In this document: piece by piece, positions 29,002 through 53,835 of the stretch
How the letters are laid out: the number at the start of each line of letters is the position of its first letter
How positions within the stretch are numbered: position 1 is the stretch's first letter
Notes under the pieces: generated by a model
What the model saw: only the letters and a program-made list of their open reading frames with translations
Databases searched by the model: none
What the model was told of the DNA's origin: nothing
Source: Callorhinchus milii
Lineage: Eukaryota
NCBI RefSeq assembly: GCF_018977255.1
Contig: NW_024704743.1
Span: forward strand, 13,456,001-13,520,000
Direction: 5' to 3'
Length of the DNA: 64,000 bases
Translations under genes and position numbers: made by a program

Positions 29002-29308
29002 GGAGTCCTGTAGCTCAGTGGTTAGAGCACTCGCTTTGCAAGCAAGAGACCTGAGTTCAATTCCAGACAGGGCAAAACCTTGGGCAAGTTTCCTTACTCC
29101 ACACGCCTAATAATAATCCCTCCAAAACCAAAAACAATAATAAATTGGTCATTTTCAATCTACGATTGTTTGTGGGACATTGCTGTGCGCAATTGGCTGC
29201 CGCATTCGCCCACAAATATACAGTCAATTCACTTTACAGTGTGTTCTGTGAAGCGCTTTGGGACGTCCTCCCGACGTGAGAAGCGCTACATCAAATGCAA
29301 GGATTATA
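29002..29308 (+). mobile_element. tRNA-derived SINE (young) nested in a Deu-type SINE
   Basis: Full head-to-tail copy. The host SINE head lies at 28920-29001 and its body resumes at ~29309. Confidence 0.88.
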
Positions 29309-29791
29309 ATCTAGGCTATTCTAATGCTGCGGCAAGTGCTACATTGCCAGAAGTGTCATCTTTCATATGAGATGTTAAACCAAGATCCTATCTGCCTACT
29401 CAGATGGATGTTGAAGATCCCATGGCACTAATACACAGTAATTACACTTTATACTAAATCCTGTGAAGTGCTTTGAGACATCTTCCTGATGTGAATGTGT
29501 TATTATTATTACTACTTGAAAAACAGAAGGTAGTTTCTCCCAGTGTCCAGGCCAAAAATCCTTCATCTAAAATTGGTCATTCGCTTCATAATCATAATAA
29601 TAATATTCCTTGCATTGATACAGCACCTTAAAACATCGCTGAGATTTCATGGCTGTTTGTGAGACACTGCGGTGCACAAATTTGCTACCATGTTCACCTA
29701 TAAAATAGTCCTTTAACAGACCTCCATATCCCATCAGTATCCACACTAACTGGCACACTCCATCAGTATCCATTCAGACTTACATACACCA

Positions 29792-30468
29792 TGTTGAAAT
29801 ATATTGATTATCACCTCAGGATACATTGTTATATTTCATACAGCAACCGAATGTTCCAGATGTTTGATAGTTAATTGGTTAAAAGTGGCTTTGTTGGACG
29901 GGTTGAGGTCAGCTTCTGCTTACATTTCATATTTTCCTGAGAAGATGTTCAATCCTCTGAGATAATGAGAAATCGGGTCCTTGAGCGTCGATGTAAGAAC
30001 AAAGGACCACAGGAAGGAAAGGCTATAGACATCTGCCTATCTCAAGGCTGAGAAACAAACAGGCTGTGGAAGGCTGTCCAGAAGTTGTCCATATATTTCC
30101 CTCTCTGCAAAGCAGCTGCGAAGGGTGGGGACTATCTCTGTGACAAGGGGAGGTGGAGTTAGAAACACATGAAAGAAAGATGTAACTTTGAAATAGTTGG
30201 GAGTTGTGTAGAGGGTCAGCACACTTCCCAGTAGAATTGATATCAATTCTACTGTTTATGAACAGGGGTAAGGGAATTTACCTCCAGTAAGAAAGTGACC
30301 ATGTTTCTCTATGATTTGTATATCTGTTGTGTCTTGTGTATTATTGTTTCATTTATTTGTGTATTACCTGCTGTTTTGACCTGAATAAAGTGACTTAACT
30401 CAACCAATTGGTAAACTGGAATCGGATCATTCTAAAATTTTTGGAGATAGTTGCAAATGTTTCTAACA
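29792..30468 (+). mobile_element. Candidate solo LTR
   Basis: TGTT...AACA termini, AATAAA at ~30384, and flanks ACCA/CCCA (imperfect 4-bp TSD). Confidence 0.5.
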
Positions 30469-31114
30469 CCCACACATCCAAGTTTCTTCATATTTAATGT
30501 AGAAACTACCTTTCAGTAGTTGTTTCTTTTTACTATGGCTACTGTTATCCTGCCTAACTTTTCCTTTTTCTATACCAGGGGCTTGTATTTTTACCTCTTA
30601 CCAACCTGTTCTCAATGTTCTCCTCTCCTGAGGCCTGGAAGTATGCCTAATTGAATCTAATGTACAACATTTTTAAGTTCAGTTTTAATAATAAGTATAT
30701 AAAAACGGTTTTCAAATTACAACTGAAATAAAAAAATTCTCCATAATACCCAATCTTAAAATTGATGACAAAATTGTCTTAGAGCCTAATACTAGGTGGA
30801 ATTCCATGCCTCATGAATCAATTGAAGAGGGTGCATATTACAACATTAATTAGTAGTTTTCAAACAGAAACAAAAACTAAAAGAAAAGCCAAGGGTTAAC
30901 AGAAAATATCCCATTGCATCAAAGTCAAAGAAACTTCCATCACATCTTTTTTATTTGAACATTATATGTTTGAACATTATAAGACCAAAACACAAGGCTG
31001 GAAGCATTTGTTTGTTTACAACTGACAATATAACACAGAGATTTTTATGGTTCTATAACAATTTTTTTAAAAACTTGCATTTTTTTAAAAATCTTGCGTT
31101 TATAACATTGACAC

Positions 31115-32262
31115 ATAGAATCATAGAATTATACAGTACAGAAGGAGGCCATTCAGCCCATCGTGCAGGCTCTTTGTAAACAGCTATCCAATTCAATCCC
31201 ACTCCCCCGTTCTGTCCCCATAGCCCTGCAAACTTGTCCTCCCCAAATATTTACCTACTTCTCTCTTAAAAGTTGTTATCGAATTGTCTTCCACCACCCT
31301 TTCAGGCAATGCATTCCAGATCCAAACAACTAGCTGTGTGAAAAAAATTCTCCTCACTTCCCCTCTGTTTCTAGTAACTATTTTAAATTGGTGTCCTCAG
31401 GTTACTGACCCACCCACTAGTGGAAATAGTTTCTCCTTGCTCACCCTATCGAATCCCTTCATAATTTTAAAAACTTCTATTAAGGCTCCTCTTAATCTTC
31501 CCTGCTCCAAGGAGAATAATCCCAGCTTCTCCAGCCTCTCCTGATAACTGAAGTCCCTCGTTCCTAGTACCATCCTGGTAAATCTCCTTTGCACCCTCTC
31601 CAATGCCTTGACATCCTTCCTAAAGTGTGGTGGCCAGAACTGAACACCGTCTCTAGCTGAGGCCTAACCAGTGTTTTATAAAGATTCATCATAACTTCCT
31701 GACTTTTGTATTCTATGCCCCTATTTATATATGCCCCTATCCCGTATGCTTTTTTAAAAGCTTTATCTACCTGTCCTGCCACCGTCAAAGATATATGAAT
31801 AATAATAATAATACAAAAATATATGAACCCCCAGGTCTCTCTGTTTCTTCATCCCCTTTAAGATTGTACCATCAGCTTATATTGCCTCTCCTCATTCTTC
31901 CTCCCAAAATTCATCACTTCGCATTCCTCTACATTAAACTTCATCTGTCACATGTCTACCCAGTTTATCAGTCTGTCTATATCCAGTTGCAGTCTGCTAC
32001 TATCCTCCTCACTGTTTACTACTTTTCCTAGCTTAGTATCATCTGCAAATTTGGAAATTGTACTCCCTGTACCCAAGTCCAGGTTATTTATAAAAATCAA
32101 AAACAGCAGTGGTCCCAATACTGACCCCTGGGAAACAGCACTGCACACTTCCCTCCTGTCAGAAAAACAACCTTTCACCACAACTCTCTGCTTTCTGTCT
32201 CCCAGCCAGTTCTGTATCCATGCTGCCACTGTTCCTTTAATACCTTGGGTTTCTATTTTTAT
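31115..32262 (-). mobile_element. CR1 LINE 3' part (RT to tail)
   Basis: [37 protein letters not shown] and ERVQRRFTRM; (TTCTATGA) tail. Confidence 0.92.
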
Positions 32263-32479
32263 ATCTCAAACACTTCACAGGTATTTGCAGGCAAGTGTAA
32301 AGATTATATATTTGTAGGCAATGCAGTAGACAATCAGATCACAGCAAGATTCCACACACAGCTATGAGGTACATGTATCTAAGCCAGGATCCTCTTCTCT
32401 TTTCAAATAGTAAATTGATTCTTCAACATCTATCCGAAGAGCATGCAAACAGTTTAACATTCATCGGATGCATCCGAAG

Positions 32480-32798
32480 GACATATAACATGGAGAATGG
32501 GTCATTAACCAGAGGACACAGATTCAAGATAATTGGTAAAAGAACTACATGGGAGATGAGAATTTGTTTTTGCAGTGAGTTATTATGATCTGGAATGCAT
32601 TTTCTGAAAAGATGGTGAAGCAGCCCATTACTAACTTTCAAAAGGAAATTGGATATTTATTTGAAAAGAAAAGAAATGTCAAGGCTATGGGGAAAGAATG
32701 GGGGAGTGGGACTAATTGGCTAGCTTTTTAAAAGAGCCGGCACAGTCATGATGGGCCAAATGGGCTCTTCCTGTGCTGTAGGATTCTATGATTCTATG
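32480..32798 (+). mobile_element. CR1 3' fragment
   Basis: TRGHRFKI remnant and ATTCTATGATTCTATG tail. Similar tails at ~10170-10580, 11408-11556 and 20210-20372. Confidence 0.8.
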
Positions 32799-32940
32799 AC
32801 GTTAAACTGCTTGCATGCTTTTCAAGTAGATGTTGGGCACTGTAAGCCGAGACTGGAATCTGAAACTTGAACCCATAATTCAATGACCACACATAACACT
32901 CCCTATTTTCTTAAGCACTTATATTCAATATAAATGTTGT

Positions 32941-32965
32941 NNNNNNNNNNNNNNNNNNNNNNNNN
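32941..32965. other. Assembly gap (25 N)
   Basis: Run of n. Confidence 1.
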
Positions 32966-33484
32966 ATAATCATAATAATAATATTCCTTGCATTGATACA
33001 GCACCTTAAAACATCGCTGAGATTTCATGGCTGTTTGTGAGACACTGCGGTGCACAAATTTGCTACCATGTTCACCTATAAAATAGTCCTTTAACAGACC
33101 TCCATATCCCATCAGTATCCACACTAACTGGCACACTCCATCAGTATCCATTCAGACTTACATACACCATGTTGAAATATATTGATTATCACCTCAGGAT
33201 ACATTGTTATATTTCATACAGCAACCGAATGTTCCAGATGTTTGATAGTTAATTGGTTAAAAGTGGCTTTGTTGGACGGGTTGAGGTCAGCTTCTGCTTA
33301 CATTTCATATTTTCCTGAGAAGATGTTCAATCCTCTGAGATAATGAGAAATCGGGTCCTTGAGCGTCGATGTAAGAACAAAGGACCACAGGAAGGAAAGG
33401 CTATAGACATCTGCCTATCTCAAGGCTGAGAAACAAACAGGCTGTGGAAGGCTGTCCAGAAGTTGTCCATATATTTCCCTCTCT

Positions 33485-34830
33485 AACTATCTTCATCCAC
33501 CCTCTCCCGTTACTTCATCAAAAAACTCTGTCAGACATGATTTGCCTTTAACAAATCTATGTTGGCTGTCCTTTATTAACCCATATTTTTCTAAGTGAAA
33601 ATGTATTTTGTCGCGCATTATCGTCTCCAGAGGTTTCCCCATAACTGACGTTAGGCTGACTGGTTTGCAGTTCCTGGGTTTATCCTTCTGCCCCTATTTA
33701 TACAGAGGAGTGACATTCGCAACCCTCCAGTCCTCTGGCATCACCAAGGAAGATTGAAAGTTTGTTGCCAGAGCCTCTGTTATTTCCACCCTTACTTCCC
33801 TCAGTAACCTAGGTTGCATCTCATCTGGACTGGGTGACTTATCTACCTTGAACATCAACGATCTTTTTAGCACCTCCTCTCGGTTTATTCTTATCTTATC
33901 CAATTTCTCTATCCTCTCTGCCGATACTGTGGCATTGGCTGCATCCTCTTCTTTTGTGAAGACAGATGCAAAGTACTCATTCAGTACATCAGCCATGCCC
34001 TCTGCCTCCACAAGAAGATTTCCTCTTTGGTCCCTAATTGGACGCACCCTACCTTTGTCCAACCTTTTATTCTTTATATGCTTATAAAATACTTTAGGGT
34101 TCCCTTTTATGTTACCTGCTAATCTTTTCTCATACAATCTCTTTGCCCCTCTTATTTCCATTTTCAGTTCTCCTTCCCTTGTTTGAGCTAAGTCTCCATT
34201 ATTGCCACTACATCATAACCCCATATGACAACTTGAGCCTGCAGCTCACCATCTTATTTGTCACACTCCGTGCATTTACGCACATGCACTCCAAGACTGA
34301 CCTAGTCTGTCCTGCATTTCTCCCCCATCTAATTCCTTTTTCTGTATTACTCCTTATTACATTGTTATTTGTCTCTCCCAGCCCTCTGTGTAACTTGTTT
34401 TTCCTCTCTGATGCTGCATCCTTAGTGCCTTCCACCCTCAAAATTAGTTTAAACCCTTCCCCTAACCTCCCTGCGAGGACATTGGTCCCAGCCCTGTTCG
34501 GGTGTAACCCGTTCACCTTGTACAGGTCCCACCTGCCCCACAACTGGTCTCAATGATGCAGGAACCTGAAGCCCTCCTTCCGCACCATTTCTGCAGCCAT
34601 GCGTTCATGTGTTTGATCCTGCTGTTTTGATACTCACTTGCACAAGACACTGGGAGTAATCCAGAGATCACCACTTTTAAGGTCCTACTCTTTAACTTTA
34701 AAGTCTCTAGCTTCTGATACTCTCCCTGTAGGATCTCAGCCCTTTTTTTCCCTGCACCATGGATCCCAACATGGACCATGATGTTCCCCTTCCCCCTGTA
34801 GAATGTTTTGCACTCATTCCGTGATGTCTT
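33485..34830 (-). mobile_element. CR1 LINE 5' part: ORF1 SGNH-esterase remnant and internally deleted ORF2
   Basis: VHVG..., VVISGLLPV, WGRWDLYK..GLHPNRAG (ORF1); NARSV, NPKVFYKHIK, LNEYFASVFTKE, PEDWRVANVTPLYK (ORF2). Confidence 0.88.
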
Positions 34831-34989
34831 CAACCCAAAGTTATTCTGAATCTGTTATGGTAAGGCTGTGTTAGACTCAGGCAAAGAATGGAATTGCTGG
34901 GGGGAAGGATTCTTTCATTTACAATAATAATAATAACCCTTGTATTTGACATATATTTTGATGTATTAAAACATCAAAACACTGATAAT

Positions 34990-34990
34990 G

Positions 34991-35022
<32 letters not shown>

Positions 35023-35323
35023 CCTTGCATTTGATATAGCGCTTTTCACGTCGGGAGGACGTCCCAAAGCACTTCACAGAATACACTGTAAAGTGAATTG
35101 ACTGTATATTTGTGGGCAAATGCGGCAGCCAATTGCACACAGCAATCTCCCACAAACAGTCGTAGATTGAAAATGACCAATTTATTATTGGTTTTAGTTT
35201 TGGAGGGATTATTATTAGGCGTGTGGAGTAAGGAAACTTGCCCAAGGTTTCGCCCTGCCTGGAATTGAACTCGGGTCTCTCGCTTGCAAAGCGAGTGCTC
35301 TAACCACTGAGCCACAGGACTCC
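34990..35323 (-). mobile_element. tRNA-derived SINE (young) with expanded (TAT)n tail
   Basis: Full-length copy with a tail microsatellite. Confidence 0.9.
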
Positions 35324-38300
35324 ACATGACTCACTATATCAAAGGTAAAGATTATGATTATTAGCAATTGATCGCTTCGCCCACAAAATATACAGTCAAT
35401 TCACTTTACAGTATATTCTGTTAAGCGCTTTGAGACTCAATGATGTTATAAAGCACTATATCAAATGCAAGGATTATTATTATTAGCATTATAGCACTTT
35501 GAAGAAGCAGTAGCAGAAATCCCATGATGACCACAAATGCCCCTTAAAGGGAATTGTCTAAATTGTGGCCTTGTGCTTTTCTCTGCTAGGAGCTGGATTG
35601 GTTTGAGAATTCCAGCATTGATTTAATTTGTGACCTCCAGCAACCAACAGAAAGACTCCCCTATCTCTGCTGAGAGCCACTTAGATATTAGTTATGTCAG
35701 CAAATATACAGCAGTGCAGTCAGAATAGTTACTGTGGAATATTATTCTGTCCAGATTTTGTGTGGTGAGGTTTAGGTGAGGGTACCTTAGCCAGAGATGA
35801 TGTAGCACAGTGCTATTTAATAGCAGTGCTATTTAATAATATAATTAAATCCTATTAGAAGGATTTAATAGGCCCAGGTTCCAGTGTATCTTCTAGACGT
35901 CTGGAAGATGTGATAAGGCGCTATATCAAATGCAAGTATTATTATTGTTATTATCTCTGTGCAGCACCACAAATCATTAAAGAAAAAAAATTGTGCAAAA
36001 GACAGACTCTTTCCTAAACTGTAGGTTTCCCAGCAGGGCGAAACCTATGTTCCTTGTGGAGTCCTGTAGGTCACTCACCTTGCAAGTGAGAGACTTGGGT
36101 CCAATTCCCGGCTGGGTGAAACATTGGGCAAGTTTCCTTACTCCACACGCCTCTGTTTATCTATCAGTAAGTAGGAACCCGGTTGTTAGTCGATTGGCAG
36201 ATCGCTTTTCCGGGGATGATAATCCCTTCAAAAAAATAATAATAATTTGGTCACTCATTCCACGACTGTTTGTGGGACACTGCTGTGCACAATTGGCTGC
36301 CGCATTTCACCCACAAAATAAACAGTCAATTCACTTTACAGTATATACTGTGAAGCGCTTTGAGACATCTCGAAGACGTAAAAAGGCGCTATATCAAATG
36401 CAAGGATTATTATATGTACATGACTAATATTTCCAGGTTTGATGGCTGAAGCAGTTCTTTTCTGCTTACTGCTGTCTTCTTGTCCTGTGCTTCTTCTAGA
36501 AATGATTAGAGCATTGTGTGCACTTGTTTCTCACTAAAACTCCAGGCTATTCTGTTCCTGATGTTACACACTGTTTCCTCCACTTCACTGTCGGTTTGCT
36601 ATAATCCATCCTTGTTAACAAAGCACAAATTGGTCATTAACTGTTGTCACAGAGATAAATAAGCAAAATGTATTCTAAACAAACTCGATGGTTCCCACTA
36701 GCAGGAAATTACTCCGCAAGAATCTCAATAATTCCATACTTAACAGCTCAGCTGAATATGTGAATATTTCTGTTTTGATGTATGTATACACAGAATAGCT
36801 CTACATAGATAGCTCTTTTAAAAGAGCTGGCACAGACACGATGGGCCAAATGGCCTTTTTCTGTGCTGTTTGATTTTATGATAATTCTATGTACATCGTC
36901 CTTCCCAACTCCGGGTGAATACCCACAAACCCCCTCCTATAAGAAATACATTTAGCTAGTAATGATTAATAAAGGTATAAAGCAGCCACTCTCTGAGCAA
37001 TAATATGAGGGTCTTGAAGATGGATGAGATGCTATTTATTAGAATCATCTTGGTGTCAGTCTGGGTCAGTTGGTAGCACTCTCAAATTGGGTTCAAGCCC
37101 CACATTGACACCAGTGCAGTCCATTGTGGGTGTACTGCATTCTTGGAAGTACTGACCTTCAGATGAGATGTCAATCTAAGGTATATTCAGGTGGATGGCT
37201 CCAATTGAGAAGAGAAGATAGTTTCTCGCAGTGTCCTGGGCAACAATCCCCCAATTAGATATTTGCAAAATAACCATTTTATTGACCATGAATTTACCAG
37301 GTAGTGAATGCTGGCAACTCAACCTGATCTTGTCCTTATTCCCTGGCCAGACGCATACAGTTTCCAGCAACATCACTGGATAATGATCAATAGCAGCAGA
37401 TCTGGTGGATGATTATAATAACGTAGTGATCCTTGCCTTATCACATTAAAACTCCTTAAAGTGCTTCACAAACTTTGCCATAAAGGGTTGTGATTGTATT
37501 TTTAAACGAATTGTAAGATCAGCTAACTCAGCATCGACCTGTGCTCAAACCTACGACTTTCTGGGCCTGTAAGACTTAGTTCTGCTCTTAGCAGAGTGTT
37601 TCCTTTTCTACACGCCACTGTTTACCTAGCAGTAAGTAGGAACCCGGTTGTTAATCGATTGGCCAATCGCTTTTCCTGTGTTAATAATCACTTAAAAAAA
37701 ACGAATTAGTCACTCAATCCACGACTGTTCGTGGGACACTGCTGTGTGCAATTGGCTGCCTCGTATCTTCCACATAATTTACAGTACATTCTGTGAAGTC
37801 CTTTGAGATGTTTCGATACGGTAAGGCACTATATCAAATGCAAGGATTATTCTTATTATTTATTATCAAGCACTGACTGGTTAGGCTGATGGCGTTTTCG
37901 TGCTGTACAGTCTGTGCACATCTATGTAAACACAACTGAGCACAAAATTAATTGCTTTGGAACAAGGAAGCACGTCTCCACGCAGACGGTTGTGAAGACG
38001 TGGAACACTTCATCCACGAAAGCTGCAGAGGCGGAATCAATAGGGATGTTTAAAAGATAGAAAGATATTTGGCTAATAATAATAATAATCCTTGCATTTG
38101 ATATAGCGCTTTTCAAGTCTTCTAGACGTCTCAAAGCGCTTCACAGAATATAAAGTGAATTGACTGTATAGATGTGGGCAAAACGCGGCAGCCAATGAAT
38201 GATTTTTCATTCATGTTCACCCACAAGGTGTAGCAGCAACGATTAACAAGAATTGGACCATTCATCCAACAATTCCACTGAGGTCCGAACATAAGAGAAC

Positions 38301-40894
38301 AAGATACATATGGAGAAATAAGCATTGCTTATGGCCCTAGCTACAGCCAGCAGCCACTGTGTTAAAGCACTGCACAATGTGTCTGGTATACATATGTTAA
38401 GACAGGAAGGCACTTTATCAGCTGTGTCACCAAATTAAGTAACTTGACAGATGAAGTTGCAGTTGGTTACCGTGTGATGGGCTTAATAAAAGTTCTTCAT
38501 TACGCTGTGGAGCCATCATTGGTTGGGGCTTTCACTCAATATTGGGAATTAATTGGCGAGCTTTGCAAAAGAATTTGCCGCACAACCGGGATTTGCTATT
38601 TACAAATAATTCTGTGAATATAATAATAATCCTTGCATTTGATAATAGCGCTTTATCATGTCTTCTAGACGTCTCAAAGCACTTCACAGAATATACTGTA
38701 AAGTGAATTGACTGTACACGTTGTGGGCGAATCGCAGCAGCCAATTGCGCACAGTAGTGTCCCACAAACAGTCGTGGATTGAAGTGACCAATTTATTATT
38801 AATTTTTTTTGAAGGAATTATTAACTCTGGAAAAGCATCCGCCAATCGACTCACAACCAGGTTCCTACTTACTGCTAGGTAAACAGAGATGTGTGGAGTA
38901 AGGAAACTTGCCCAATATTTCACCCTGCTGGGAATTGAACCCAGGTCTCTCCCTTGTGAGGGGAGCACTCTAACCACTGAGATACAGGACTCCAGAATCT
39001 CAGTAAATAATGGAATAGTACATTTGGCTCAGTAGATCTGCCTAGTGCTGGAAAGCAGTTCATTGTGTGTTCAATTTTGCTCAACAAGAACTACTTGGTT
39101 CACTCTGCCTAGTGTATAACTGAGCTTTCCAGGTCCAGAAAGGTTTGATTCGCAGTCTTAACCCACTTCCACCGCACACTACCAAGTCAGTAGCTTTACC
39201 AAGGGAATTTCACTCTTCAAAGCTTTCAATGAAAACTCTGCTACTTCTACTTGTGATAAATCAAAGATTGTTTCAAATATGTTGAAGTAATCGCCAATTA
39301 AAGTTGCATCCGTTGTCTTACTGGAATATTGCTGCCAATATCAAATGCTAAATCTCACTAAGGTAATGATCAGGTTATAAGTGTGTTAAATTTAGCTCTG
39401 TGAGGACCACTGTACAATTCTGAACTAAAATAGTAAAGCACTGGAAGACTACAATTATGATATCATCCACTCATTGTGATTGAGAAATTAAGAGTTAAGG
39501 AGACGGTTAGAAGAAAATCTCTCAGGCAAAGGTGATTGCAACATGGAATGCTTTGATGCAAGTGTCTGTTAAGACCATAGCATTTAAATGGAAATTAAAT
39601 AAACATTTCAAAAGAAACAATCCAAAAAACTAATGGAACACAGTGGCGTAGTGAGATTTGGATGTCGAGTTGTAAATGGAGGAATGAGCAATAGCATTCT
39701 GAGCTGTAATTTCAATAATTCCATGATCTGCACTTCCTGGTGTTTTTGCAGTTCCACTTGTGATTAATAAAGAATGTCAGGAAATCCTTTTTTTTGCAGA
39801 TTAAATTCAATTGTATGTATAGGAGTTGTTTACCAAATAGGAATTCCACACCACCCAGTGCTGAAAATATGGATGAACATCGCAGCAAATCATCTCATCA
39901 CACAATTCATTTGCTACACCCTCTGGGACGCAGGCTTGAAAGAAAACCTATCAGACGGGATCATATAAAGGTATGTGATGCTGCTATTGATTTGTGGCTT
40001 CGAAGACTCGAGGTGATACTGCACTCTAAGTCTCTGCTGAGTTTAGATTGCCTCAGGACTTTCAAAGGATGCTTGTGGAAATAATAATAAACAATACTAA
40101 TCCTTGAATTTGATATAGTGCCTTATTATGTCTTCTAGACATCTCAAAGCACTTCACAGAATATACTGTGATATGAATTGGCTGTATGTCTTGTGAGTGA
40201 AACGCGGCAGCCAATTGCGCACAGCAGTGTCCCACAAACAGTCGTAGATTAAGTGACCAAATTATTATTAGTTTGAAGGAATTACAACCAGGTTTCTACT
40301 TACTGGTAGGTAAACGGACGTGTGTGGAGTAAGGAAACTTACCCAATGTTTCGCCCTTACCGGGAATCGAACCTAAGTCCTCTCGCTTGCAAGACGAATG
40401 CTCTACATTCATGCACACGCAAATATCTTGACATCATTGCATCACTGCTGTCATTTAAAATTTATTTTTCTGACGTCTGCTACCAAATTGCATGAGTGGA
40501 GGCCGGGAGATGTGCCTGAACATCAGTTTTTTTTGGTGTTTTTTGTAGCTCCATTACAATTATTTAACATCTCTCCTTCGTTACTCATAATTTTTGGGTC
40601 AGCCGGGTGTCTGACACAAACAGAAACCCATCACCATTTTTAACAATATCCAAATCAAACTGAGAGTTTCATGCATCTCACCTACACATGGAATTTCCAG
40701 AGATGTTTATTGGAATGCACACTTTCTCCCTGGAAGGATGCACCCTGCTTACCTGATTCCGGAAAGTATTAGATGCACGTTGGCAAGAACTGAGGAGGTA
40801 CATGGGGGTACTGCTGGAGTCTAACCAGCTAAAACCATATAGCATTGAGAGTACTGACTGGCAAGCTTTCCCACCACTTGTTCAGCTAAGACCA

Positions 40895-41310
40895 CCCAAC
40901 CCAGTCATCACCAGGCCTCACTGTCTCCCAACAGATTGACTTCAAAGTCCTCACCATGATCTTCAAATCCCTTTAAACCTTAGCTCTTCCCTATCTTTGT
41001 GATCTTCTAGCCCACTTGTCTGCTTGCCTCCTCCACTCAGTTTGCAGCATGACCTCTTCCCCTCCAGATCATCCTTAAGTGACCAAGCATTCAGCTACTA
41101 CGCCCCTAATCTCTGGAACTCTCACCCTTTACCCTTATATCTTGCTACCTCTCCATCTTGTCTTTAAAACTTGCCTTACAATCTACATCTTCATCTTCAC
41201 CTCTGATCGCCTCCGCTTCTCCTTTCTCTGCATCTGACTCAGTCATTGTGAAGTTCTCTGAGATGTTAATCTATGTGAATGGTGCAATATAAATGCAAAT
41301 TGCTGTTATT
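40895..41310 (+). mobile_element. Decayed L2 3' fragment
   Basis: IDFKVLTMIFKSL..LALPYLCDLL remnant and L2-type tail. Confidence 0.65.
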
Positions 41311-41974
41311 TTTGCAGCAGCCATTAAGAAAATAAATGCTAATGATCTTTCGCACTACAAGGTCAATCCAGACTGTGAGCTCAGAGGCCCAACACACATA
41401 CACGCACACACAAACACACATAGTCAGTGGCATTGACAATACTGACCTCTAATGGGATTTTCCTATTACAGTTGGACACAATGAAAATATATTAATTGTA
41501 AGTAGAGGAGACAAAAACATTGGGACAATATATCAATAGCCTCTTTGTCCTCACCAAGTTAGCTGGGAGTTGCTTGAGTGCCAGATGATTGGGGTGGAGA
41601 GAGACTGACCACAGAATACTGATGGTTGTTTAACCAAAGGACCTTGAAGGAAACACATTTGACTGTAGGCCAAGGTGTTAACTAAAGGAAACACATTTTT
41701 TGTCTTCAGACATTGCCCATTTCCTATTGAGATATTATGATACTAAAGTGTAACGAATGGTCAGTGAAATGAACAGTACCTCTTTAATTTGGTTATTAAA
41801 TAATGTGTTGAGTCTTTGTGCAAACCATCTTATTAAATGGCACTATTATTACAGGCAATGTTAACTGAAGACTAACAGTTTGTATGGGGGATGAAGGGAG
41901 AGGAGAAGGGTAAGAGTTGAAACTGTGTTTTGGGGGAAAACAACCTTGTATTTTATTTGCCTGCCCGTTCACCT

Positions 41975-42882
41975 CACAGCGTGAACCCATCACCAAACAT
42001 GTTTTTTCTTCCACTCCCCTCTCAGCATTCGTCACGGACTGCTCTCTTCGTGACTCCCTGGTCCACTCCTCTATCGATACTAACACCTGCTCTCCCTCCC
42101 CTGCCCCTTCCCATGGCAGTGCAGGAGATGCAACATCTGCCCATTCAACTCCTCGATACAACTGTCCAGGGCTCCAAACAATGCTTCCGGGTGAGACAGC
42201 AATTTACATGTACTTCCACCAACGTAGTATACTGTAATCGCTGCACACACTGTGATCTTCTCTACATCAGGGACACCAAACGCAGATTGGGTGATCGCTT
42301 TGCCGAACACCTCCGTTCAGTCTGCATGTGCAACCCTGAGTTTCCGGTCGCTTGCCACTTTAATTCTCTTTCCTGCTCCCACTCTGACCTCTCCTTCCAT
42401 GACCTCCATGGCTGTTTGAACGAAGCTCAACACAAGCTTAAAGAACAGCACTTGATTCACCTCCGAGGCACCTTACAGCCCTTCGGCCTCAACATTGATT
42501 TCAACCACTTCAGACCCTAACCACAGCTCCCATCTTCTCTCAGCCTTGCTCCCAAGCCCCCACCCTTTCTTCTATAACCATTAACACATTCTCTGTTCGG
42601 TCTATAATCTCCCACTATTGCCTTTTGTTTTGCACCATCAACACCTCTAATTTCATCATTTACTCTCCTCCATCTAAAAATGTTTCCTTTGTCTTTCTTT
42701 CCTCGCCCCCTTCTCTGCTTGTCCTTATAATCTGCTCCCTTCCAACATACTCCAGTTCTGACAAAAGGTCATAGACCTGAAACGTTAACTCATTTCTCCA
42801 TGGATGCTGCCTGACCTGCTGCGTGTTTCCCAGCAACTTTTGTGTTCATACCAGATATCCAGCATCTGCAGTACTTTGCCTC
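41975..42882 (+). mobile_element. Penelope-like retroelement remnant with GIY-YIG endonuclease
   Basis: FTCTSTNVVYCNRCTHCDLLYIRDTKRRLGDRFAEHLRSV...PVACHFNS...EQHLI..GTLQPFGLNIDF, followed by the terminal repeat. Confidence 0.9.
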
Positions 42883-45800
42883 TTGTATTTTATTTATTTG
42901 TTTTTAATTCCAAACATTCGATAACATTTTGTTCATTGATCATTAATGCCCTACTATGTCATATGCTACAAATACAACTATATAACTGAATGAATGTGCT
43001 TTTAATAAATATTTATAATATTTACATTTGGTATAGTGCCTTTCAGGTCAGAAGGATGTCTCAAAGTCTTCACAGGATTTACTGTAAAGCATAGTGACTG
43101 TGTATTTTGTAGGTGAACATAACAGCCGATTTTGCACACTGCTATGTGCCACAAACAACAATGAAGTGAATGGCTAATTTATATTTCAGGAACTTTTGGC
43201 CAGGACACTGAGAGAAACTCCCTTCTTTTTTGAATGATGTCATAGAATCTTTAACATACACCTGAACAGGCAGACTGACCTTTTAACAAAGGACGGGTGA
43301 TTTTGTGAATATAAAGCTTTACTTTGTGGTTCACTTTATGACATTATGTTTTAAAGGAGGCCCAGACATCTGACCGAGCTGGGCATCACTGCAGTAAAGA
43401 GATAACACGCCTTAAATTCAAAGGTGGTAACTTCTGTGATGATGTCACAACCTTGATATTAAAGTTAATTATGTTTTACTCATGAAGCCAGTCCCAGCAC
43501 TTGAACACTGGAGCCCTCCATAATATGTGAGTGCATATGATTATCATCTGACAGACAAAGGTGAAACAGAGGACACAGTGTCAGCAGCACAGATGTTACC
43601 AATTCACAAGACATACTTGTTCCTATCCTGATTTTACTTTCAGTTATTGTCTGATAGGTTGTTATTATTGCTGCTGTTATTTCTGTGGTTCTTGTTATTG
43701 CTGTAAGTTATTACTGATGAGGGAATTAATATTACTATAGCTGTTATCAATGAGATAGTTATTATGGTTGTTTATTCCTATGTTTTTTATTGCTGAGTCA
43801 GTTATTACGATGGTTGTTATTATTGCTGAAGCAGTTATTACTATAGTTATAATAATAATAATCCTTGCATTTGATAGAGCGGCTTATCACTTCTTCAAAT
43901 TGGCTCACAGAATATACTGTAAAGTGAATTGACTGTATACTTTGTGGGCGAAACATAAAATGAAGGCAGTTATTATTACTAAGGTTTTTATGATTACTGA
44001 CACCATTGCTCTGGTCATCATCATTAATGTGGCAGTTATTACGCAGGTTTGTGGGTTCAAGCTCCACATCAGGACTTTGAACTCACATTGTGTACACTGA
44101 CACTCCACCACAGTGCTGGGGGGGTTTCTACACTGTTGGAGGTGCCACATTTGGATGAGACGTTAAACAAGGTTCCGTCTGCCTGTTCATGTGGACGTTA
44201 AAGATCCCATGGCACTATTTGAAATGAGAAGGAAGTTTCTCCTGGTGTCCTGGCCAATAATCCCCCAAATAAAATTGGTCACTCACTCCATGGCTGTTTG
44301 TGGACATTTCTGTGCTTTCATCTAAAAGATAGGCAGTCAACAATAACTTACATTTATAGAGCGCCCTTCACGCAGGGCAGCATCCCAGAGCACTTAAGTC
44401 ACGACACTTTACAGCATATCCTGTGAAGCGCTTTGAGATATCCTCCAAACATGAAAGCCACTGTATCAAATGCAAGTATTACTATTGTTAGTATTATTGT
44501 TGCAGCAGTTATTACTATGGTTATTCTTGCTATGCAAATATTGTTACTATAGGTATTATTGTTGGTGACAGTTATTATTACTATAGCTACTTATTGCTGT
44601 GGCTGTTATTGCTGCTACAACAATTGCCAAGATCTCTTTAACTGAGAGAAATGACTGAGAATCATTGACTGGGAGGGCGCTAAATCCAACCAGACTGAAG
44701 CAGTTTCTAAAATAACATTATAAATAACCACATGTTGTCAAAGCCTCCAATGACTGCTATGGGCAACTTACACACTTTCCCCTTCAGGGATCAATACAAA
44801 ATCAATGCCAGGCTCAGGCTAATTTGTTGCATTGTAGTCTGGTTGCTTAATGTGCAGCCACTCACTGTTTACCAGTGTGGTGGGAACTGGCTTGGAGCTG
44901 AGCAAGTGATTCATTTTCAACCTTTTTCACAATGTCATTGACCAAAGGCATGACCCCTGAATTCACTCCTTAGTATACTGTGAATTATGGAATAACCAAA
45001 AAAGACTCACTGGAAACTGTCCAACAGAGAAGCTACAGTCAACTGGACTGTCCCAATGTTATAAGAGTCCCGTAACATAGTAGTTAGAGCACTCGCCTCG
45101 CAAGTGAGAGGGCCCGGGTTCAATTCAAAAGTGGGGCAAAACCTTACTCTTTACTCCACACGTCTCTGTTTGTCTAGCAGTAAGTAGGAACCAGGTTGTT
45201 AGTCAATTGGAGGATTGCTTTCCGGGGGTAAAAATCCCTCCAAAAAAATATTTTTTAAACAGAATTATTTAGTGACTCAATCCATGATTGTTTGTGGGAC
45301 AATTGGCTGCCGTATCTCTTCTACAAAATACACAGTCAACCTACTTTACAATATATTCTGTGAAGCAATTTGAGACATCTCAATGATGTGATAAGGTGCC
45401 AAATCTGATGCAAGGATTATTATATTTATAAGAGGAGACACAGAACCTCCGAGTAATTAATCTCAGTTGCCTGTTGTTATTTGCTTTACAGTAATGCACT
45501 GTTTAGAGTCAGACTGGAAGCAAACATTCTGTGCAGCTGCTCTCTTAACCCTCATCTTCAGATGTGGGGTACGATGCCACCCACAGCTGCCCTGAACTCA
45601 GAAACATCTGCAAAGTAAATAGAGGAGAATTGCTACCTCCAGGCCACCAAAACCTGTATGAAGTGGTTTTCTCTGCTGTTCTGATCATAATAGAGTTGGT
45701 AATGGAAGTGTTGTTTCCGGAGAGGCTATTTCAACTGGCTCCAAATTAAAGTTTCTCCCAGTGTCCTGGGAGTTCGTCTACAAATAGACAGTACACCAAA

Positions 45801-47672
45801 TCAAATCCTGGGAGGCACTTTGAAATGTCTCGACAACGTGATCAGGCTCTACATCTATTGCAATTATTATTATAAACAGAGTAAGAAACAAGACATTTAA
45901 ACCACTGCACGCAGACAAACATGTCGTACAGCTTGAGTTGTGTGCTTGAGTCCAGCTCAGTGTAAATGGGATGAATCCCACAGTGCCGACTGCTCAGGGC
46001 ATTGCAAGACACTTCTACTTGAAGCACTTGTGCAACAGTAATGAAGCGTTAAATTCTCCTCTGTAACATTTACCCAACACTTCCAGGCCGTTTGGCCTAC
46101 TTTTAGGGTGAAGGCAGTATTCCCAGTGTTGGCTCCTACAGTAGCTTTCTGCAATGTGTAATGTTACGATGAATGATTCAGACACGAGGTTGTTCAGCGT
46201 ATCCAGCCATTGGTTTGAGGTACAGTATCAGATTATGTAGAGGTCACAATGCTAACATTAAGCCATATAGAGGTGATCACTTCTAATGTCATATTATACA
46301 TATAGAGGCTATTACTATTGTAATCCGGCTACACCGGGGCACTTATTGCTAATACAACAACATGCATTTACATAGGGCTCTTCATGTGTGGTAACGTCCT
46401 TATGCCGTCCTTCGGATGAGACATTCTCCGAGGTTCCGTCTGCCTGTTCAGGAGGACAGTAAAGATCCCATGAGACTATTCAAAAAGAGAAAGGAGTTTT
46501 TCCCGATGTTCTGGCCAACAATCCCCCAAGTAAAATTGGTCACTCACTCACACTGGCTGTTTGTAGGACATTGCAGTGTGTGCAATTGGCTGCTGTGTTT
46601 CGCCCACAAAATACAGTCAATCCACTTTACAGTATATCCTGTGAAGCGCACTGAGACATCTCAACAACGCGATAAGGCTATATTTAATGCAAGGATTATT
46701 ATTATTATAAAGAGAAACTCTTCTTTTTGAACAATTTCATAGAATTTTTAACGTATACCTGAACAGGCAGACTGACCCTTTGACAAAGGACGGGTGATTT
46801 TGTGAATATAAAGCTTTACTTTGTGGTTCATTTTGTGACATTATGTTTACTCCAATGCAAACCTTTCTTTTACTTCCTGTAGTGGAAAGAATTGTTCCAG
46901 CCTCAGGTCAGCTTTTGTGGTGGAAAGACATGAATCTGCATCTTAAAAGTATTCCTTCTGATGCTGTGGAATGTGCCCTGCAGCCTGGGGCAATAAGATA
47001 AGGGACTCAGGGAAGATCAGGCAGCATCTTTAAGAACCTATGTAATTCTCCAATTTATATAGAGTATAATGCTCCAATTTATGTAGAGTACAATGCTCCC
47101 CTAGCTCAAGAGTGCCACTCAAGTTTGTCACTCAAGGCTGTCAGTTGAGCGTCACTCTACTTCAGACGTGGTGTTTATATCTGGAAAGCCCAGGGTGTAA
47201 GCAGTGTATTAATGTCACATCCATCAAACATGGGCAAGATCTAGGGAAACGATTCTTCCCAATCTAACTGAAATAACAATAGTGGAGACAATGTGATGTG
47301 CTTACAAATGAGGCAACTTTCCTCCCAGCTCTTTTCACTCACTGGCTCTGCCACTATTACTTAATTTTGTTCTGGTCAGCCGGGTGCCTGACAGAGGGAG
47401 AAATCCACCTGGGTTTGAGCAATTCAGAGCATGCAGAATTTAATAAGTTCTTAAATTTGGTCTTTACAATGTCTAGAAGACGTGAAAAGCGCTATATCAA
47501 ATGCAAGGATTATCATCATTAATTTTAAAAGGATTTCCTGTGCTTCTAATCAAAGATCCTCAGAAAACCAACTTCACAGTCAAATCTACATAACTATGAC
47601 AACTTGCATTTTTACAACGTCCTTCATTCAGGGTAGTGTCTTGGAGCGCTCTAAAATGCTAATAAAATACAG

Positions 47673-47993
47673 TATAATAATAATAATAGTCCTTGCATTT
47701 GATATAGCGCTTTTCACGTCGGGGGGACATCCCAAAGCGCTTCACAGAACACACTGTAAAGTGAATTGACTGTATATTTGTGGGCCAACACGGCAGCCAA
47801 TTGCGCACAGCAATGTCCCACAAACAGTCGTAGATTGAAAATGACCAATTTATTATTGTTTTTGGTTTTGGAGGGATTATTATTAGGCCGTGTGGAGTAA
47901 GGAAACTTGCCCAAGGTTTCGCCCTGCCTGGAATTGAACTCAGGTCTCTCGCTTGCAAAGCGAGTGCTCTAACCACTGAGCTACAGGACTCCT
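47673..47993 (-). mobile_element. tRNA-derived SINE (young)
   Basis: Full-length copy nearly identical to 29002-29308. Confidence 0.9.
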
Positions 47994-49996
47994 GTAGGTG
48001 TAGTGTAAATCTACACCCAGATGGAATTTTTCTCCTGCCCTCCATGATGTTGGGTCACTGGTTGTGGGGGAAAAGCTTGCCCAGAGTTTGTTTATTGCTG
48101 TGATACATATGCATTGTATCTGTTTGCATTCCTAATGTGTTTCAAAATAAAGCCCACTGGAGCTTTTGGGCTGAGCACTAAATCTCTCAGCTGTTCAGAG
48201 ATCTCCATGCATTCTAACTGCAGGGCCCTGTTTAAAATCAAACCTTCGCAAAGAAAGAATATTAATTTTAACAATAGTAATCCTTGGTGAATTTTTCTCC
48301 TGCTTCCAAAAATTGTTTCAGTGTTGCTATACAAAGGATGAATGCTGATGACAGCGCTGTATACAGTGGTTCACAGGAACCCTGCAGTGTTGAGGACCTG
48401 GAAATCATTTGTAAAATCATCATTAACATGGGGAGTCTCAGTCATCATGTCATTACAATTGTCAGCTCACTTACTTCCTCAAACCAGACTGCCGATCAGC
48501 CTGCCAGTAACCACTATTCAAAGAAAACAATTTGAAGAAAGCGCAGGAACAGAAACAGGAGAAAGTAACAAAAGGATGGCTAATAAGAAAAAAAACAAGC
48601 CCAAATGCTTCAAAGGGTTTCACGGTAATTACTGTCAGGTGAGGTGACTGTTTTACCGGAGCAAACGTGGCAGCCATTTTACACCCACATGATTTCACAA
48701 ATATGAGGCGAATAAGTAATTTATCTGGAGGGTTATCGGCCAGGACACCGGGAGAACATCTCTTCTCTTTTCAAATAGTGAGAAGGGGTCTAAATCATTT
48801 ACTCGAAGAACGGACAGACGGGATCTCATTTTAATGTCTCACTCGAAGGGCCACATCTCAACTTAGTGGCAGTGCAGACCTACTCCCGTTCCTCTTTTCC
48901 AAATTAAAACTAAGTTCTGGAAGTATAACATAAGAACACAAAAGGGTGGAAATCTGAGAGCAAGACACCTGGCATCTAACACCGTTCTTTCAGGTTGACT
49001 CGTGTTCTCTGACATCCCTATAATATAACAATAATAATCGTACATTTGATATAGAGATGTCTCAAAGCACTTCACAGAATATACTATAAAATGAATTGAT
49101 TCTATATTTTGTAGGCGAAACTCGGCAGTCAATTCCACATAGGAGTGTCCCACAAACAATCCTCGATTGAGTTCTATAGCTTAGTGGTTAGAGCACTCGC
49201 ATCGCAAGCGAGAGGAGCTGGGTTCGATTCCTGGCAGGGCAAAACCTTAGTTAAGTTTCCTTACTCCTCATCCCACTGTTTACTTAGCAGTAAGTAGGAA
49301 CCTGGTTGTTAGTCGATTGGTGGATCGCTTTTCTGGAAGTAATAATCCCTTCAAAAAAATATATAGTAATAATAATTTGGTCACTCAATCCACGACTATT
49401 TGTGGGAAACTGCTGTGCACAATTGGCTGCCACATATGGCCCACAAAATATACAGTCAATTAACTTTACGGTATATTCTGTGAATTACTTTGAGGCATCT
49501 CAAAGACATAAGGCAAATGCAAGGATTGTTATTATTATTATAGACTGCATGTGGGTGACAACATGAAGCTGCAGGCTGCACATTTGCAGAACAGCTGTGC
49601 TAGAAAGGCAGTAAAGTTCTGCTGAAAATGTTCTCAAACTATAATAGATTAAAGGAGACCATGAATATGGTGCAAGACTGTAATAGTGGAAGAGGTCTGT
49701 GCATTCTTTTCCAAGAAAATATATGTTTGGAGGCATGATCAGGCGTGTAGTGCTCTGGGGAATGCCATATAAACCACAAGAGTCAGTGAGATGATTATAC
49801 AGTTACCCAAGCTCTCAATGTTGCCGCCTTTTTAACACTCTCTGAGTCAGTCAGTTGTGTATTAATGTATACATTGTAAGACAGGTTTGCTTAAGCTAAA
49901 TTGAGTCATCATAATGCAGATCTTCTCTGACCCTTGTTTAACTGCCCCACTAAAGCCATAGATTATTTGACAGTCATTGACAGTCTTGCTCCAAGT

Positions 49997-50832
49997 CAAA
50001 TGATTTGACACTCCAGGTCATATGACTTTGATCCTACATGATGGGGATAGAGGAGTCTGTTGCAATGATATTGCAACATAACCACTTGCTGACAGAATCA
50101 ACTGACAGAGGGAGAACGTTTACAGAGGAGCAATACTCTTCAATGCATGAGTTTGTTTTCATTGGAAGCTGATTACTAGCAAATACATTGGCAGCTAAAA
50201 TGGTGGCAAATGTGAAAGTCTTGCTTAGGAGTAACAAGTACATTACTGCTGCACTTCCGTCAATGGCATCATTCTTTTGAGTTTGGAGGACAAGCGACTC
50301 GTATCATTTGTCGAGTAACTTATCACTTGTCACTCGATAAGTGATATGATTTTAGGGTGTGAGTTTTCACAAGTGGTAACTGTGAGAGCCTCAGGTCCGG
50401 TTGTGCAGAACTCATCTTATGATTGGGCTGAATTAAGAGATTCCTTACCTATGGTCCAACCCAGTTATAACACAATAATTGGGGTCCTTATAATGAGACC
50501 TGTGCTATAATGTGTCATAGTGCAGCCACTCACACTCTCCTCTGAGGACTCTGCACCCTCACTGTGCCTGTGCCGTGCACAGAAAGCTGGCCGGTCACTG
50601 GAGACTCCTTCTCAACATCATTTCCACGGTCACCAGAAGCCGTGAGTCGGTGTCGGTCAGGGCCATGTGCTATCATGTGACCAACTGCATTGTATCCAAA
50701 CTCATAAACTTTCTCCCTCTGTCAGTTGATTCTGTTAGCAAGTGGTTGTGCTGCAATATCATTGCAACAGACTCCTCCATCCCCATCATGTAGGATCAAA
50801 GTCATATGACCTGGAGCGTGTCAAATCATTTG
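49997..50832. repeat. Long inverted repeat (arms 49997-50122 and 50705-50832)
   Basis: The arms are reverse complements with ~5 substitutions and one 2-nt indel. The ORF track shows the same peptide LPLSVDSVSKWLCCNIIATDSSIPIM on opposite strands. Confidence 0.93.
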
Positions 50833-52193
50833 TTTCCTTACTTCAAATGCCTCTGTTTACCTCGCAATAAGTAGGAACTCAGTCGATTGGCGGATCACTG
50901 TCCGGGAGTAATGGTTTCTGCCAGTGCGCAAGTGGTCTGGTCTTCTCGAATACTCCTTGACCAGGTCGCACTGCTTGTTACTTAAGAGTGTGGTTGCTGT
51001 GCGGGGAGCAGCTTCTACAGTATAACCAAATTACTCACCCAGATATTCACATTGGGTGAACAGCCATCTTCGAATAAAATGGGCAACCATTATTATCATC
51101 ATCCAAACTCATGGTATTATTGAGACATTTTATTAACGGAGTCTAATTCCATTGAGTAGATTTGTGCAAGACCCCTTCCCTCTCTCCTCTCCCACACTGT
51201 TCTCAATACCGATGCCCTGGACCCTGTTCAACCATTTCTTTTTGGATAATTAGCAAAATCAGGGGCATAATCTGCAGGGATTGAGGGGGTAGGGGAAGAT
51301 AAATGGGACTGAACAAATTGCTCTTTGAAAGAACCAGCACAGACACAATGGGCCAAATGGCCTTTTTCTGTGCTGTAAAGATAAGCGCTTTCAGACGTCT
51401 TGAAGATGGGATAAGGCACTGTATCAAATGCAAGGATTATCATATTATTATAATTTCTACTGTTTTATGGGGCTCCACTCTTGAGTCTTTTTATTCAGTT
51501 AAAAAACCACGGCAGCACTAACTGCCAGTCAGCCACACGAGTTGGAAACCGAATGCGACGTCCAGCTCCATGGACTTTCGGCATTGAGTACGACTTGGGG
51601 CGAGCAAAGGGAGAAGGAGGGGAGAGGGTCCCACTTTGTATACATCAGGGTCAATCGTATTCAGATCGCGTAGGTTAAGAGCCCATTTTCAAACCCCGTG
51701 CCCTCAATTCAATTGTATTCCGCACTCTGCCCATGTACAGCCGGGCGATTGGGCAGCTCCTGTGCCAAGCTCGCGAAACATAACACTCGCATTATGTTCG
51801 AATTGTTCCGATGTTGAGTTTGAACAAAGTGAGAAAGAACAGTATTGTTTTTGTTACTGTTCACACCACCCTCCCCTCTTGCCACCCCACAGGAGGTGGA
51901 GGAAGTGTGACACATCGCTTCTTACGCCTCGTGTGAATTTCTGGGAACCGATGGGAGGCTTTTTGTTCATCAGAAATAAATGAGTTCAGAGCAAACCTTG
52001 TGTAAACAGGAAAGCTCCCTCCTTGACCAGGCTGGTCTTGCCCTGGAGTCAATGTCACTTGAGGTGATGTCCATCAGAGCTGACACCTCTCTTCCCATAG
52101 TGACAAAGAGCTGCTGGATTTAACCACACTCTGGCCCACACACCAGGTACACAGCTACTGACATCTTTCTGGCTCCTGAAGGAAAGATCAACC

Positions 52194-52226
<33 letters not shown>

Positions 52227-52744
52227 GCAAAGCTGCTTATCTGATGCCCTCTGTGCTGAAAATGCCAAGTCCGCCCTCACACGGAAACTGCAGCGAATGA
52301 GCAGTCTGAGAGCAAACAATAACATGAGCCCCGAAATGAGAGCAGCTCACACTGACCGACCGACCGACCGACTGACCGAGTGTCCAGGCATTGTCTGCTG
52401 TGTGTTGGGAGTGTGTGTGTGTGTGTGTGTGTGGCTCATTAGAGGGGGTGAAGGGGTTGAGGAGGGGTTAGAAGAACAAAGTGCAATATTTGCTTTGCAG
52501 CCCCTACATGAATCGACAGCAATTTTTTTAAAAAAAAACCTTTGCTGTTACAGAGACAGACGCTCTCTCTCTCTCCCACACACACACACACACACATATT
52601 CTGCAAAGAATCAGGTTGAAGGCAAAGGCAGAGGCAATGTGGGAGTACAGTGCTTCTCCAGGTCCGCCTGGTCCCTGTTGGCAGCTGTTTGAGTGAAACA
52701 AGCGACTTGATCCAAGTAAAGTGACACGAACCTGAGCACTGTCA

Positions 52745-52877
52745 CACACCTACAGCTTCCCCCCCTCCCAGGGCACTCACCTACAGCTCCCCCCCCCCCT
52801 CCCCCTCCCCTCCTCCCAGGGCACTCACCTACAGCTCCCCCTCCCCTCCCCTCCTCCCAGGGCACTCACCTACAGCT

Positions 52878-52908
<31 letters not shown>

Positions 52909-53582
52909 CAGGGCACTCACCTACAGCTCCCCCCCCCTCCCCCCTCCCTCCCCCCCCCCTCCCAGGGCACTCACCTACAGCTCCACCCCCCCCCCCTCCC
53001 AGGGCACTCACCTACAGCTCCCACCCCCCCCCCGCCCCCCCTCCCAGGGCACTCACCTACAGCTCCCCCCCCTCCCCTCCCCCTCCCAGGGCACTCACCT
53101 ACAGCTCCCCCCCCCTCCCCTCCCCCCTCCCAGGGCACTCACCTACAGCTCCAACCCCCCCCCCCCCCTCCCAGGGCACTCACCTACAGCTCCCCCCCCC
53201 TCCCCTCCCAGGGCACTCACCTACAGCTCCCCCCCCCCTCCCCTCCCAGGGCACTCACCTACAGCTCCCCCCCCCTCCCCTCCCAGGGCACTCACCTACA
53301 GCTCCCCCCCCCCCCTCCCAGGGCACTCACCTACAGCCCCCCCCCTCCCAGGGCACTCACCTACAGCTCCCCCCCCCCCCCCCTCCCAGGGCACTCACCT
53401 ACAGCTCCCCCCCCCCCTCCCAGGGCACTCACCTACAGCTCCCCCCCCCCCTCCCAGGGCACTCACCTACAGCTCCCCCCTCCCCTCCCAGGGCACTCAC
53501 CTACAGCTCCCCCCCCCTCTCCCAGGGCACTCACCTACAGCTCCCCCCCCCCCCCCCCCCCCTCCCCTCCCAGGGCACTCAC
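52745..53582 (-). repeat. Minisatellite containing the GFOD1 5' splice site
   Basis: Unit CTCCCAGGGCACTCACCTACAGCT(C)n; 20 copies besides the true donor. Confidence 0.97.
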
Positions 53583-53835
53583 CCAGGGTCTTGACAGCGA
53601 TCTGGCGGGTCAGGGGAGGCGGCAGATTGATGCAAACCACATCCACGTCCTGGTGCAGTAAGACATCGTCGATCCTGTTGGTGTAGAAGGGCACATCCAT
53701 CTCCTTGGCCAGTTCCTCGGCTTCCTCCGGGGTCCTCCCCCACAGAGCCTTCACCGTGAAGCCTTCACCCTTCAGCAACGGCACTATCACCCTGGTGGTC
53801 AAGCTGGTGCCGAACACACCGACTCCAGGTAGCAT
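53583..53835 (-). CDS. GFOD1: GFOD1 coding exon 1 (NAD(P)-binding Rossmann N-terminus)
   Basis: ATG at 53835. Translates [22 protein letters not shown]...[12 protein letters not shown]+G, then donor G|GTGAGT. 253+920 nt = 390 aa + stop, with matching phase. Confidence 0.96.

Follow-up and report, generated by a model that had tools for sequence, protein, structure and literature searches.

A G-rich minisatellite that reiterates a donor-like splice site at the start of the GFOD1 intron of Callorhinchus milii, most likely a tolerated by-product of repeat growth

The intron that follows the first coding exon of GFOD1 in Callorhinchus milii begins with a tandem array in which a sequence resembling the authentic splice donor recurs 20 times. 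The question raised by this arrangement is whether the copies compete with the true donor and set the output of the gene, as was proposed in a preliminary description of the locus, or whether they are tolerated by the splicing machinery. The DNA analysed (the window) is a stretch of 64,000 nt from contig NW_024704743.1 (positions 13,456,001 to 13,520,000), in which GFOD1 is encoded on the minus strand (Table 1). The translated first exon matched the solved structure of human GFOD1 (PDB 8y7p, E 4e-46) and PF01408. Splicing of 53583 to 26431 gave a product of 390 aa, and this true-donor product agreed with the public GFOD1 of Callorhinchus milii (P0126, XP_042188095.1) at 84 of 84 exon-1 residues and 305 of 305 exon-2 residues; these matches bear out the gene name that had been assigned earlier. 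GFOD1 proteins of other cartilaginous fishes showed 78-95% identity. GFOD1 has been described as a pseudoenzyme that lacks a cofactor and whose Rossmann-like domain spans residues 1-120 (PMC11612644); the exon joint falls at residue 85, just ahead of a GKNVICDRT motif (87-95). The annotated protein, whose name carries no isoform suffix, backs use of the true donor while leaving room for minor forms, and it may itself be a homology-guided model.

Table 1. Features of the GFOD1 locus in window coordinates; a slash marks the position of the cut.
Feature	Position	Strand	Remarks
GFOD1 second coding exon	25512..26431	-	acceptor 26431 to stop codon
GFOD1 intron	26432..53582	-	27,151 nt
GFOD1 first coding exon, CDS part	53583..53835	-	253 nt, phase 1, codons 1-84 plus 1 nt; ATG at 53835
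True 5' splice site TGG/GTGAGT	53577..53585	-	last exon base 53583, GT at 53582; 7/9 consensus positions
G-rich minisatellite	52750..53582	-	21 units of 30-54 nt, 833 nt, 64% G, at very start of GFOD1 intron
Unit 1	53535..53582	-	48 nt; only extension keeping the frame, as assembled (+16 aa)
20 reiterated donor-like sites TAG/GTGAGT	52775..53537	-	8/9 consensus positions
GT of donor copies 1-10	53534, 53500, 53466, 53432, 53398, 53360, 53330, 53295, 53258, 53220	-	
GT of donor copies 11-20	53183, 53142, 53098, 53056, 53011, 52974, 52920, 52869, 52828, 52780	-	
In-frame TGA, codon 113	53497..53499	-	inside second copied donor; ends frame for copies 3-20; coordinates by arithmetic from ATG 53835
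Array right boundary, partial junction TAG/GTGTGT	52744..52752 (GT at 52749)	-	
Three more GC-rich strand-skewed tandem arrays	53849-54368, 54732-54997, 55289-55985	.	just upstream of start codon
Dispersed 200-300 nt repeat, example copies	26610-26909, 29001-29310, 35010-35324, 47678-47977		

The 16-nt core that follows the cut at the true donor reads GTGAGTGCCCTGGGAG (cut context TGG/GTGAGTGCCCTGGGAG, minus strand) and was found 20 more times downstream, every copy behind ...CTGTAG. Each unit of the array is made up of this donor core, a G-rich spacer and an 8-nt tail ending in CTGTAG. The 24-nt junction word was matched 20 times (19 exact matches and one with a single mismatch), against an expectation of 0.00 and a maximum of 0 in 100 shuffles, and TRF reported 20.5 copies with a period of 34 and a score of 807. 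The coordinates, the number of donor copies after the true donor, the 48-nt first unit and the 16-residue insert that had been described for it were all reproduced. All 21 units carried the same core, and 20 of the 21 the same tail, so that variation was confined to the spacer, and G/GTGAGT was intact in all 20 donor copies, which differ from the authentic site at -2. Donor bases and non-donor bases of the core showed equal invariance, as would be seen in a young or homogenised array. Adjacent units were more alike than units in shuffled order (mean edit 6.05 versus 8.17, p 0.009, 20,000 shuffles), a likeness of neighbours that would be expected from local duplication and to which a length trend along the array may also contribute.

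Unit lengths were multiples of three in 7 of the first 20 units, about the chance share of 1 in 3, and frame-preserving selection on unit length was rejected on this ground. Masking of the copies by hairpins was also rejected, since the fold of 53300-53640 gave a z of +2.26 and 99 of 100 shuffles folded as well, in a model of canonical structure that leaves G-quadruplexes outside its scope. The array contains 37 runs of at least four G, 17 non-overlapping G4 motifs and 20 UAGG words. Runs of N in the window lie at 6969 and 32941-32965, none of them near the array.

Donor strength was expressed as the number of positions, out of nine, that match MAG/GURAGU, the consensus printed in PMC1557585. 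By this count the copies scored 8/9 and the true donor 7/9, the gain lying in the AG at -2, and the earlier statement that the copies are nearer to the consensus than the real site at this position was therefore correct. Outside the array, the GFOD1 intron holds 7 further GT sites of at least 8/9 and 74 of at least 7/9. One of these seven is an isolated AG/GTGAGT deep in the intron at 36078.

The consequence of splicing from each copy was predicted for the array as assembled. Copy 1 lies 48 nt downstream of the true donor and in frame, and its use would insert 16 residues to give a protein of a predicted 406 aa. Unit 1 contains a G20 run, the length of which decides the frame of copy 1; the extension contains no stop and no fully exonic UAGG. 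Copy 2 is predicted to shift the frame, so that translation would end at codon 120, within exon 2, the last coding exon. Nonsense-mediated decay (NMD) is expected where a premature stop precedes the last junction by more than 50 nt, and by this rule copies 4-20 (17 of 20) would be subject to it, their stop falling 64-716 nt ahead of the junction; copies 1-3 escape. It had been stated that later copies would often shift the frame or include a stop. The disruption was found, and the word "often" turned out too mild, as 19 of 19 truncate the protein in the array as assembled. The junction word AG/GTGAG gives TAG in one reading frame and TGA in a second, which places stops in two of three frames at every unit, and because the word itself holds both triplets the stops in most copies are no design feature. 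A 406-aa form was absent among the 15 listed of the 17 cluster members, and the insert peptides ECPGR or AVGEC were present in none of the 256 proteins compared.

A protein search of metagenome contigs with exon 1 returned five loci, of which a GFOD1-like one (L001, 93%) and a GFOD2-like one (L002, 73%) were read; the partial loci L003-L005 (27-59%) were left out of the exon-1 comparison. L001, which carries GFOD1 exon 1 of another vertebrate (93% identical), has the same TGG/GTGAGT once, in the same place, and no array. The 24-nt junction word gave 0 matches in metagenome contigs, a result that is uninformative for a vertebrate. Read-through into the intron is the apparent origin of 89 of the 256 proteins; 80 of these begin with GE and 9 with GK, which indicates that the position of the donor is conserved. 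A repeat of the first five intron-encoded residues was seen in 0 of these 89 orthologue read-through ORFs, a weak test that covers one frame up to the first stop. From these comparisons the donor is old and the array apparently not.

The exon 1/2 joint was examined in the 120 listed long homologues (250 hits). It was plain in 59, carried annotated inserts of 13-140 aa in 19 and was unscorable in 42, so that 59 of the 78 scorable homologues among those listed have a plain joint; the 16-aa insert predicted for copy 1 was found in none of the 120. In three frog genera there are annotated GFOD1 forms whose inserts of 13-16 aa at this joint resemble one another (proteins P0015, P0148, P0042 and P0048), a pattern that suggests a small cassette exon conserved in frogs. 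An insert of 50 aa at the same joint is common to two cats, and one of 39-42 aa to two quails. GFOD1 forms of 287-333 aa without exon 1 are annotated in many sharks and rays (among proteins P0121-P0147), and these begin either at Met104, within exon 2, or with a different first exon. In Callorhinchus milii, the exon at 53583-53835 may be the first exon of the transcript. No second allele was found among the 120 listed of 233 short homologues, and the 112-aa read-through peptide was absent from the protein collection searched. A search of sequencing runs with exon 2 and its 3' flank listed 14 runs, 12 of them with all or part of the stretch, from 3 studies, and none was listed as RNA.

Arrays that reiterate a splice donor have been reported before. 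In the 37-bp VNTR of human F7 intron 7 (IVS7) only the most upstream donor was used, in three cell types and with 1-12 monomers, and donor choice was affected neither by the number of units nor by mutation of the G triplets. A TGG>TAG change (-2 G>A) in the downstream copies did not activate them, and perfect downstream sites (CAG/GTGAGT) captured about 70-90% of splicing where the upstream site was weak (PMC1557585). As in F7, the authentic donor lies in the first monomer of the GFOD1 array, copies of which follow head to tail where the intron begins, and the monomer is G-rich and of similar length; the authentic F7 site, too, begins TGG/GTG. Unit 1 starts at the authentic GT and shares the -1 G, and the site furthest upstream is the authentic donor, which keeps the frame (390 aa, collinear with 59 homologues). 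The F7 monomer includes four exon bases, so that its copies equal the authentic site, whereas the GFOD1 unit shares only the -1 G and the copies become TAG/GT, one position better. GFOD1 has 21 units, with lengths of 30-54 nt that vary through the G-runs, as against 5-9 in F7, and its array lies behind the first coding exon of a cartilaginous-fish gene. On the scale of PMC1557585 the true site scores 91, and TAG/GTGAGT would score about 99 if the gain at -2 were additive. The copies would then be strong in absolute terms yet only about 8 points ahead, a gap that failed in F7, while they would also stand close to the class of F7 sites that did compete.

Other donor minisatellites occur in IFI6 (6-16) intron 2, CBS intron 13, lamin B2 and PDGF intron 4, with 25, 15-20, 10-15 and 16-18 copies, respectively, and in donor copy number these arrays are like that of GFOD1. 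Two downstream copies are used besides the authentic site in IFI6 and CBS, and the authentic site alone in lamin B2 and PDGF (PMC1557585). The "mirages" of amphioxus (Adh3 and the globins BflGb6 and BflGb9), in which regular splicing is reportedly undisturbed (PMC3087553), are likewise tandem duplications of an exon-intron boundary with splice signals intact. Mirage units span 10-160 bp and include real exon sequence, whereas the GFOD1 unit is almost wholly intronic, and length instability has been demonstrated for mirages, whereas the GFOD1 array is known from one assembly. Copies 3-20 also resemble the latent 5' splice sites of human cells, which lie behind an in-frame stop, are normally unused and become stress-activated genome-wide (PMC3510495), in being consensus-like intronic donors behind an in-frame stop; latent sites are scattered singly, however, while GFOD1 has 18 in one tandem array beside the true donor. 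In vitro, splicing moves to the distal (upstream) of two competing donors when hnRNP F/H sites lie behind both (PMC1326234), and in a reporter two exonic UAGG words brought inclusion down from 100% to 29% (PMC1079783). The available section of PMC10078293 contained nothing on reiterated donors. Apart from those on amphioxus, the cited splicing data are mammalian, and they were obtained with internal exons or in-vitro substrates. No paper on the GFOD1 minisatellite was found in a literature search that extended to few subscription papers. Judged by its sequence organisation, the GFOD1 array is a boundary-spanning donor minisatellite of the F7-IVS7 or mirage kind, an arrangement already described.

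We regard the array as most probably an ordinary by-product of the growth of repeats, and we put the probability that it is a tolerated slippage product in which the first donor is dominant at roughly 0.7, the dominance being argued from analogy and from the annotated protein. In this scheme, slippage or unequal exchange would have duplicated the first few dozen bases of the intron, from the donor GT to a downstream ...CTGTAG/GTG. A 4-nt word, GGTG, spans the cut both at the true donor and at the right boundary, and this boundary microhomology is the likely seed of the first duplication. The unit would then have multiplied as its G-run stretched and shrank. Since the tail ..CTGTAG abuts the next head GTGAGT, the AG at -2 that lifts the copies above the true donor would be a by-product of the junction. 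At the level of splicing, the most upstream donor would take nearly all events (95% or more, judging from the tested analogues) and give the normal 390-aa protein, the whole array being removed with the intron. With G-runs behind every donor, the upstream site would be favoured; use of a downstream donor would make long G-runs exonic, together with UAGG words from copy 2 on, and stop codons and NMD would clear most of the leakage. The buffering attributed to the G-runs gets no support from the F7 system, where G triplets did not matter. Against dominance, the copies improved at -2 would come nearly into the competing class of F7, and the IFI6 and CBS arrays use two downstream copies. The form with 16 additional residues need not be harmful, given that 19 of the 120 listed homologues have inserts at the same joint, including those of 13-16 aa in frogs.

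If the array is indeed a tolerated slippage product, a cartilaginous-fish case is added to the short list of donor-reiterating minisatellites, with little further weight, and the tolerance of splicing for such arrays is seen once again. As the copies stand one consensus base above the true site, the locus also provides a natural test, with 20 copies of near-perfect strength, of the rule that the most upstream donor wins (PMC1557585).

It is possible, though unlikely, that the array is leaky and has no regulatory role, as in IFI6 and CBS, with a constant 5-30% of splicing going to copy 1 and perhaps also to copy 2. The products would be the 406-aa form, with a glycine-rich insert just before GKNVICDR, and a short frameshifted product, at a level that drifts with the length of the G-run. 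Such use has precedents in IFI6 and CBS and in the competition by near-perfect downstream sites in F7 (PMC1557585), and it would agree with the 8/9 match of the copies against 7/9 for the true site, but the same change at -2 left the downstream F7 sites inactive. Copy 1 introduces neither a stop nor a fully exonic UAGG, copies 1-3 lie outside the 50-nt rule, and frogs and other vertebrates have annotated inserts at the same joint; yet no protein of this kind occurred among the 256 compared or the 15 listed of 17 cluster members, and 59 of the 78 scorable homologues, among those listed, lack an insert. The insert would moreover fall inside the Rossmann-like domain (residues 1-120; PMC11612644), two residues before the motif at 87-95.

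The preliminary description had proposed that competing donors and NMD tune GFOD1 output, while allowing that the array may equally be neutral. The neutral alternative was the better fit. Positive evidence for tuning did not emerge, F7 splicing being confined to the upstream site, unit lengths showing no frame bias (7 of 20) and the plain junction giving the sole product found, although leakage in IFI6 and CBS and the competition by perfect sites in F7 would still speak for it. One elaboration, which we consider improbable, starts from the fact that each copy stands one base nearer the consensus than the true donor and is surrounded by G-runs and UAGG words; it sees in the array a live donor ladder silenced by hnRNP H/F and A1, in which slippage of the unit-1 G-run flips alleles among GFOD1 with 16 additional residues, a frameshift and a stop, and in which unit number or stress sets the share going to NMD. 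A regulated rheostat, in which hnRNP H/F level, G-quadruplex folding or stress directs splicing to copies 4-20 and hence to NMD and unit number sets GFOD1 dose, is likewise regarded as improbable. Such a device could draw on the 17 of 20 copies that fall under the 50-nt rule, on the 37 G-runs, 17 G4 motifs and 20 UAGG words of the array, and on the waking of latent stop-preceded donors by stress in human cells (PMC3510495). The stops in two of three frames arise, however, simply because AG/GTGAG contains TAG and TGA, the neighbouring donor-free repeats have equal G4 scores (2.04, 1.47 and -1.73 versus 1.74), and F7 was indifferent to unit number (PMC1557585). Nor was there any sign of selection or conservation, with no array in L001 and none visible in the 89 read-throughs, the latter a weak test. 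Were the rheostat real, the number of repeats and the length of homopolymers would determine the dose of a vertebrate gene by way of the donor chosen.

The TAG/GTGAGT junctions might instead be points of recursive splicing, or landing pads for U1 that shield the 27-kb intron from premature cleavage. U1 is known to protect long introns, and the array places 21 U1-type sites within 833 nt at the start of one; a ratchet-like YAG/GT word is present in all 20 copies and at the right boundary. We nevertheless hold this very doubtful, as the orthologue in L001 does without such sites. For recursion in particular, the pyrimidine share upstream of AG was 0.10-0.29 in the copies versus 0.67 at the real acceptor, no YTNAY word (the branch-point motif) occurs in the array, and the sites would shorten the 27-kb intron by less than 1 kb; recursive splicing was rejected for want of a pyrimidine tract and a branch point. 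Equally doubtful is an assembly artefact, in which G-rich reads were over-expanded or mis-joined. Long G homopolymers are error-prone, and a 525-nt duplicate that starts at a 25-N gap in the same intron points to join problems elsewhere in the assembly, but the cores are error-free, the A/T/C interruptions differ between units and cluster among neighbours (p 0.009), and both ends of the array join unique sequence without N. The exact number of units and the lengths of the G-runs may be off in the assembly.

The region around the GFOD1 start is a repeat-prone neighbourhood. TRF rows cover 68% of 52745-56330, a region chosen after the fact that includes the array, versus 1.5% of the rest of the window, and about 61% (by arithmetic) without the array. 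The three tandem arrays upstream of the start codon contain no GT site of at least 7/9 on the gene's strand (scored over 53856-54368, 54732-54997 and 55289-55985). Of the arrays at 55289-55985 and 54732-54997, one is C-rich and one G-rich on the gene's strand, and both score as G-quadruplex-prone. On the minus strand of 54106-54376 there is an A/G-rich repeat with five copies of (C)AGGTGCTG(G/A)GAG, a word that resembles the junction and core of the array and is a poor donor (less than 7/9). Within the intron, 29588-30112 and 32966-33490 form the near-exact 525-nt duplicate; the duplication is probably false and due to the joining of scaffolds, because the second copy starts directly after the 25-N gap at 32941-32965. 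A dispersed family of 200-300 nt repeats with SINE-like ends and ATT tails occurs in many copies across the window in both orientations, and some of its copies are 95% alike.
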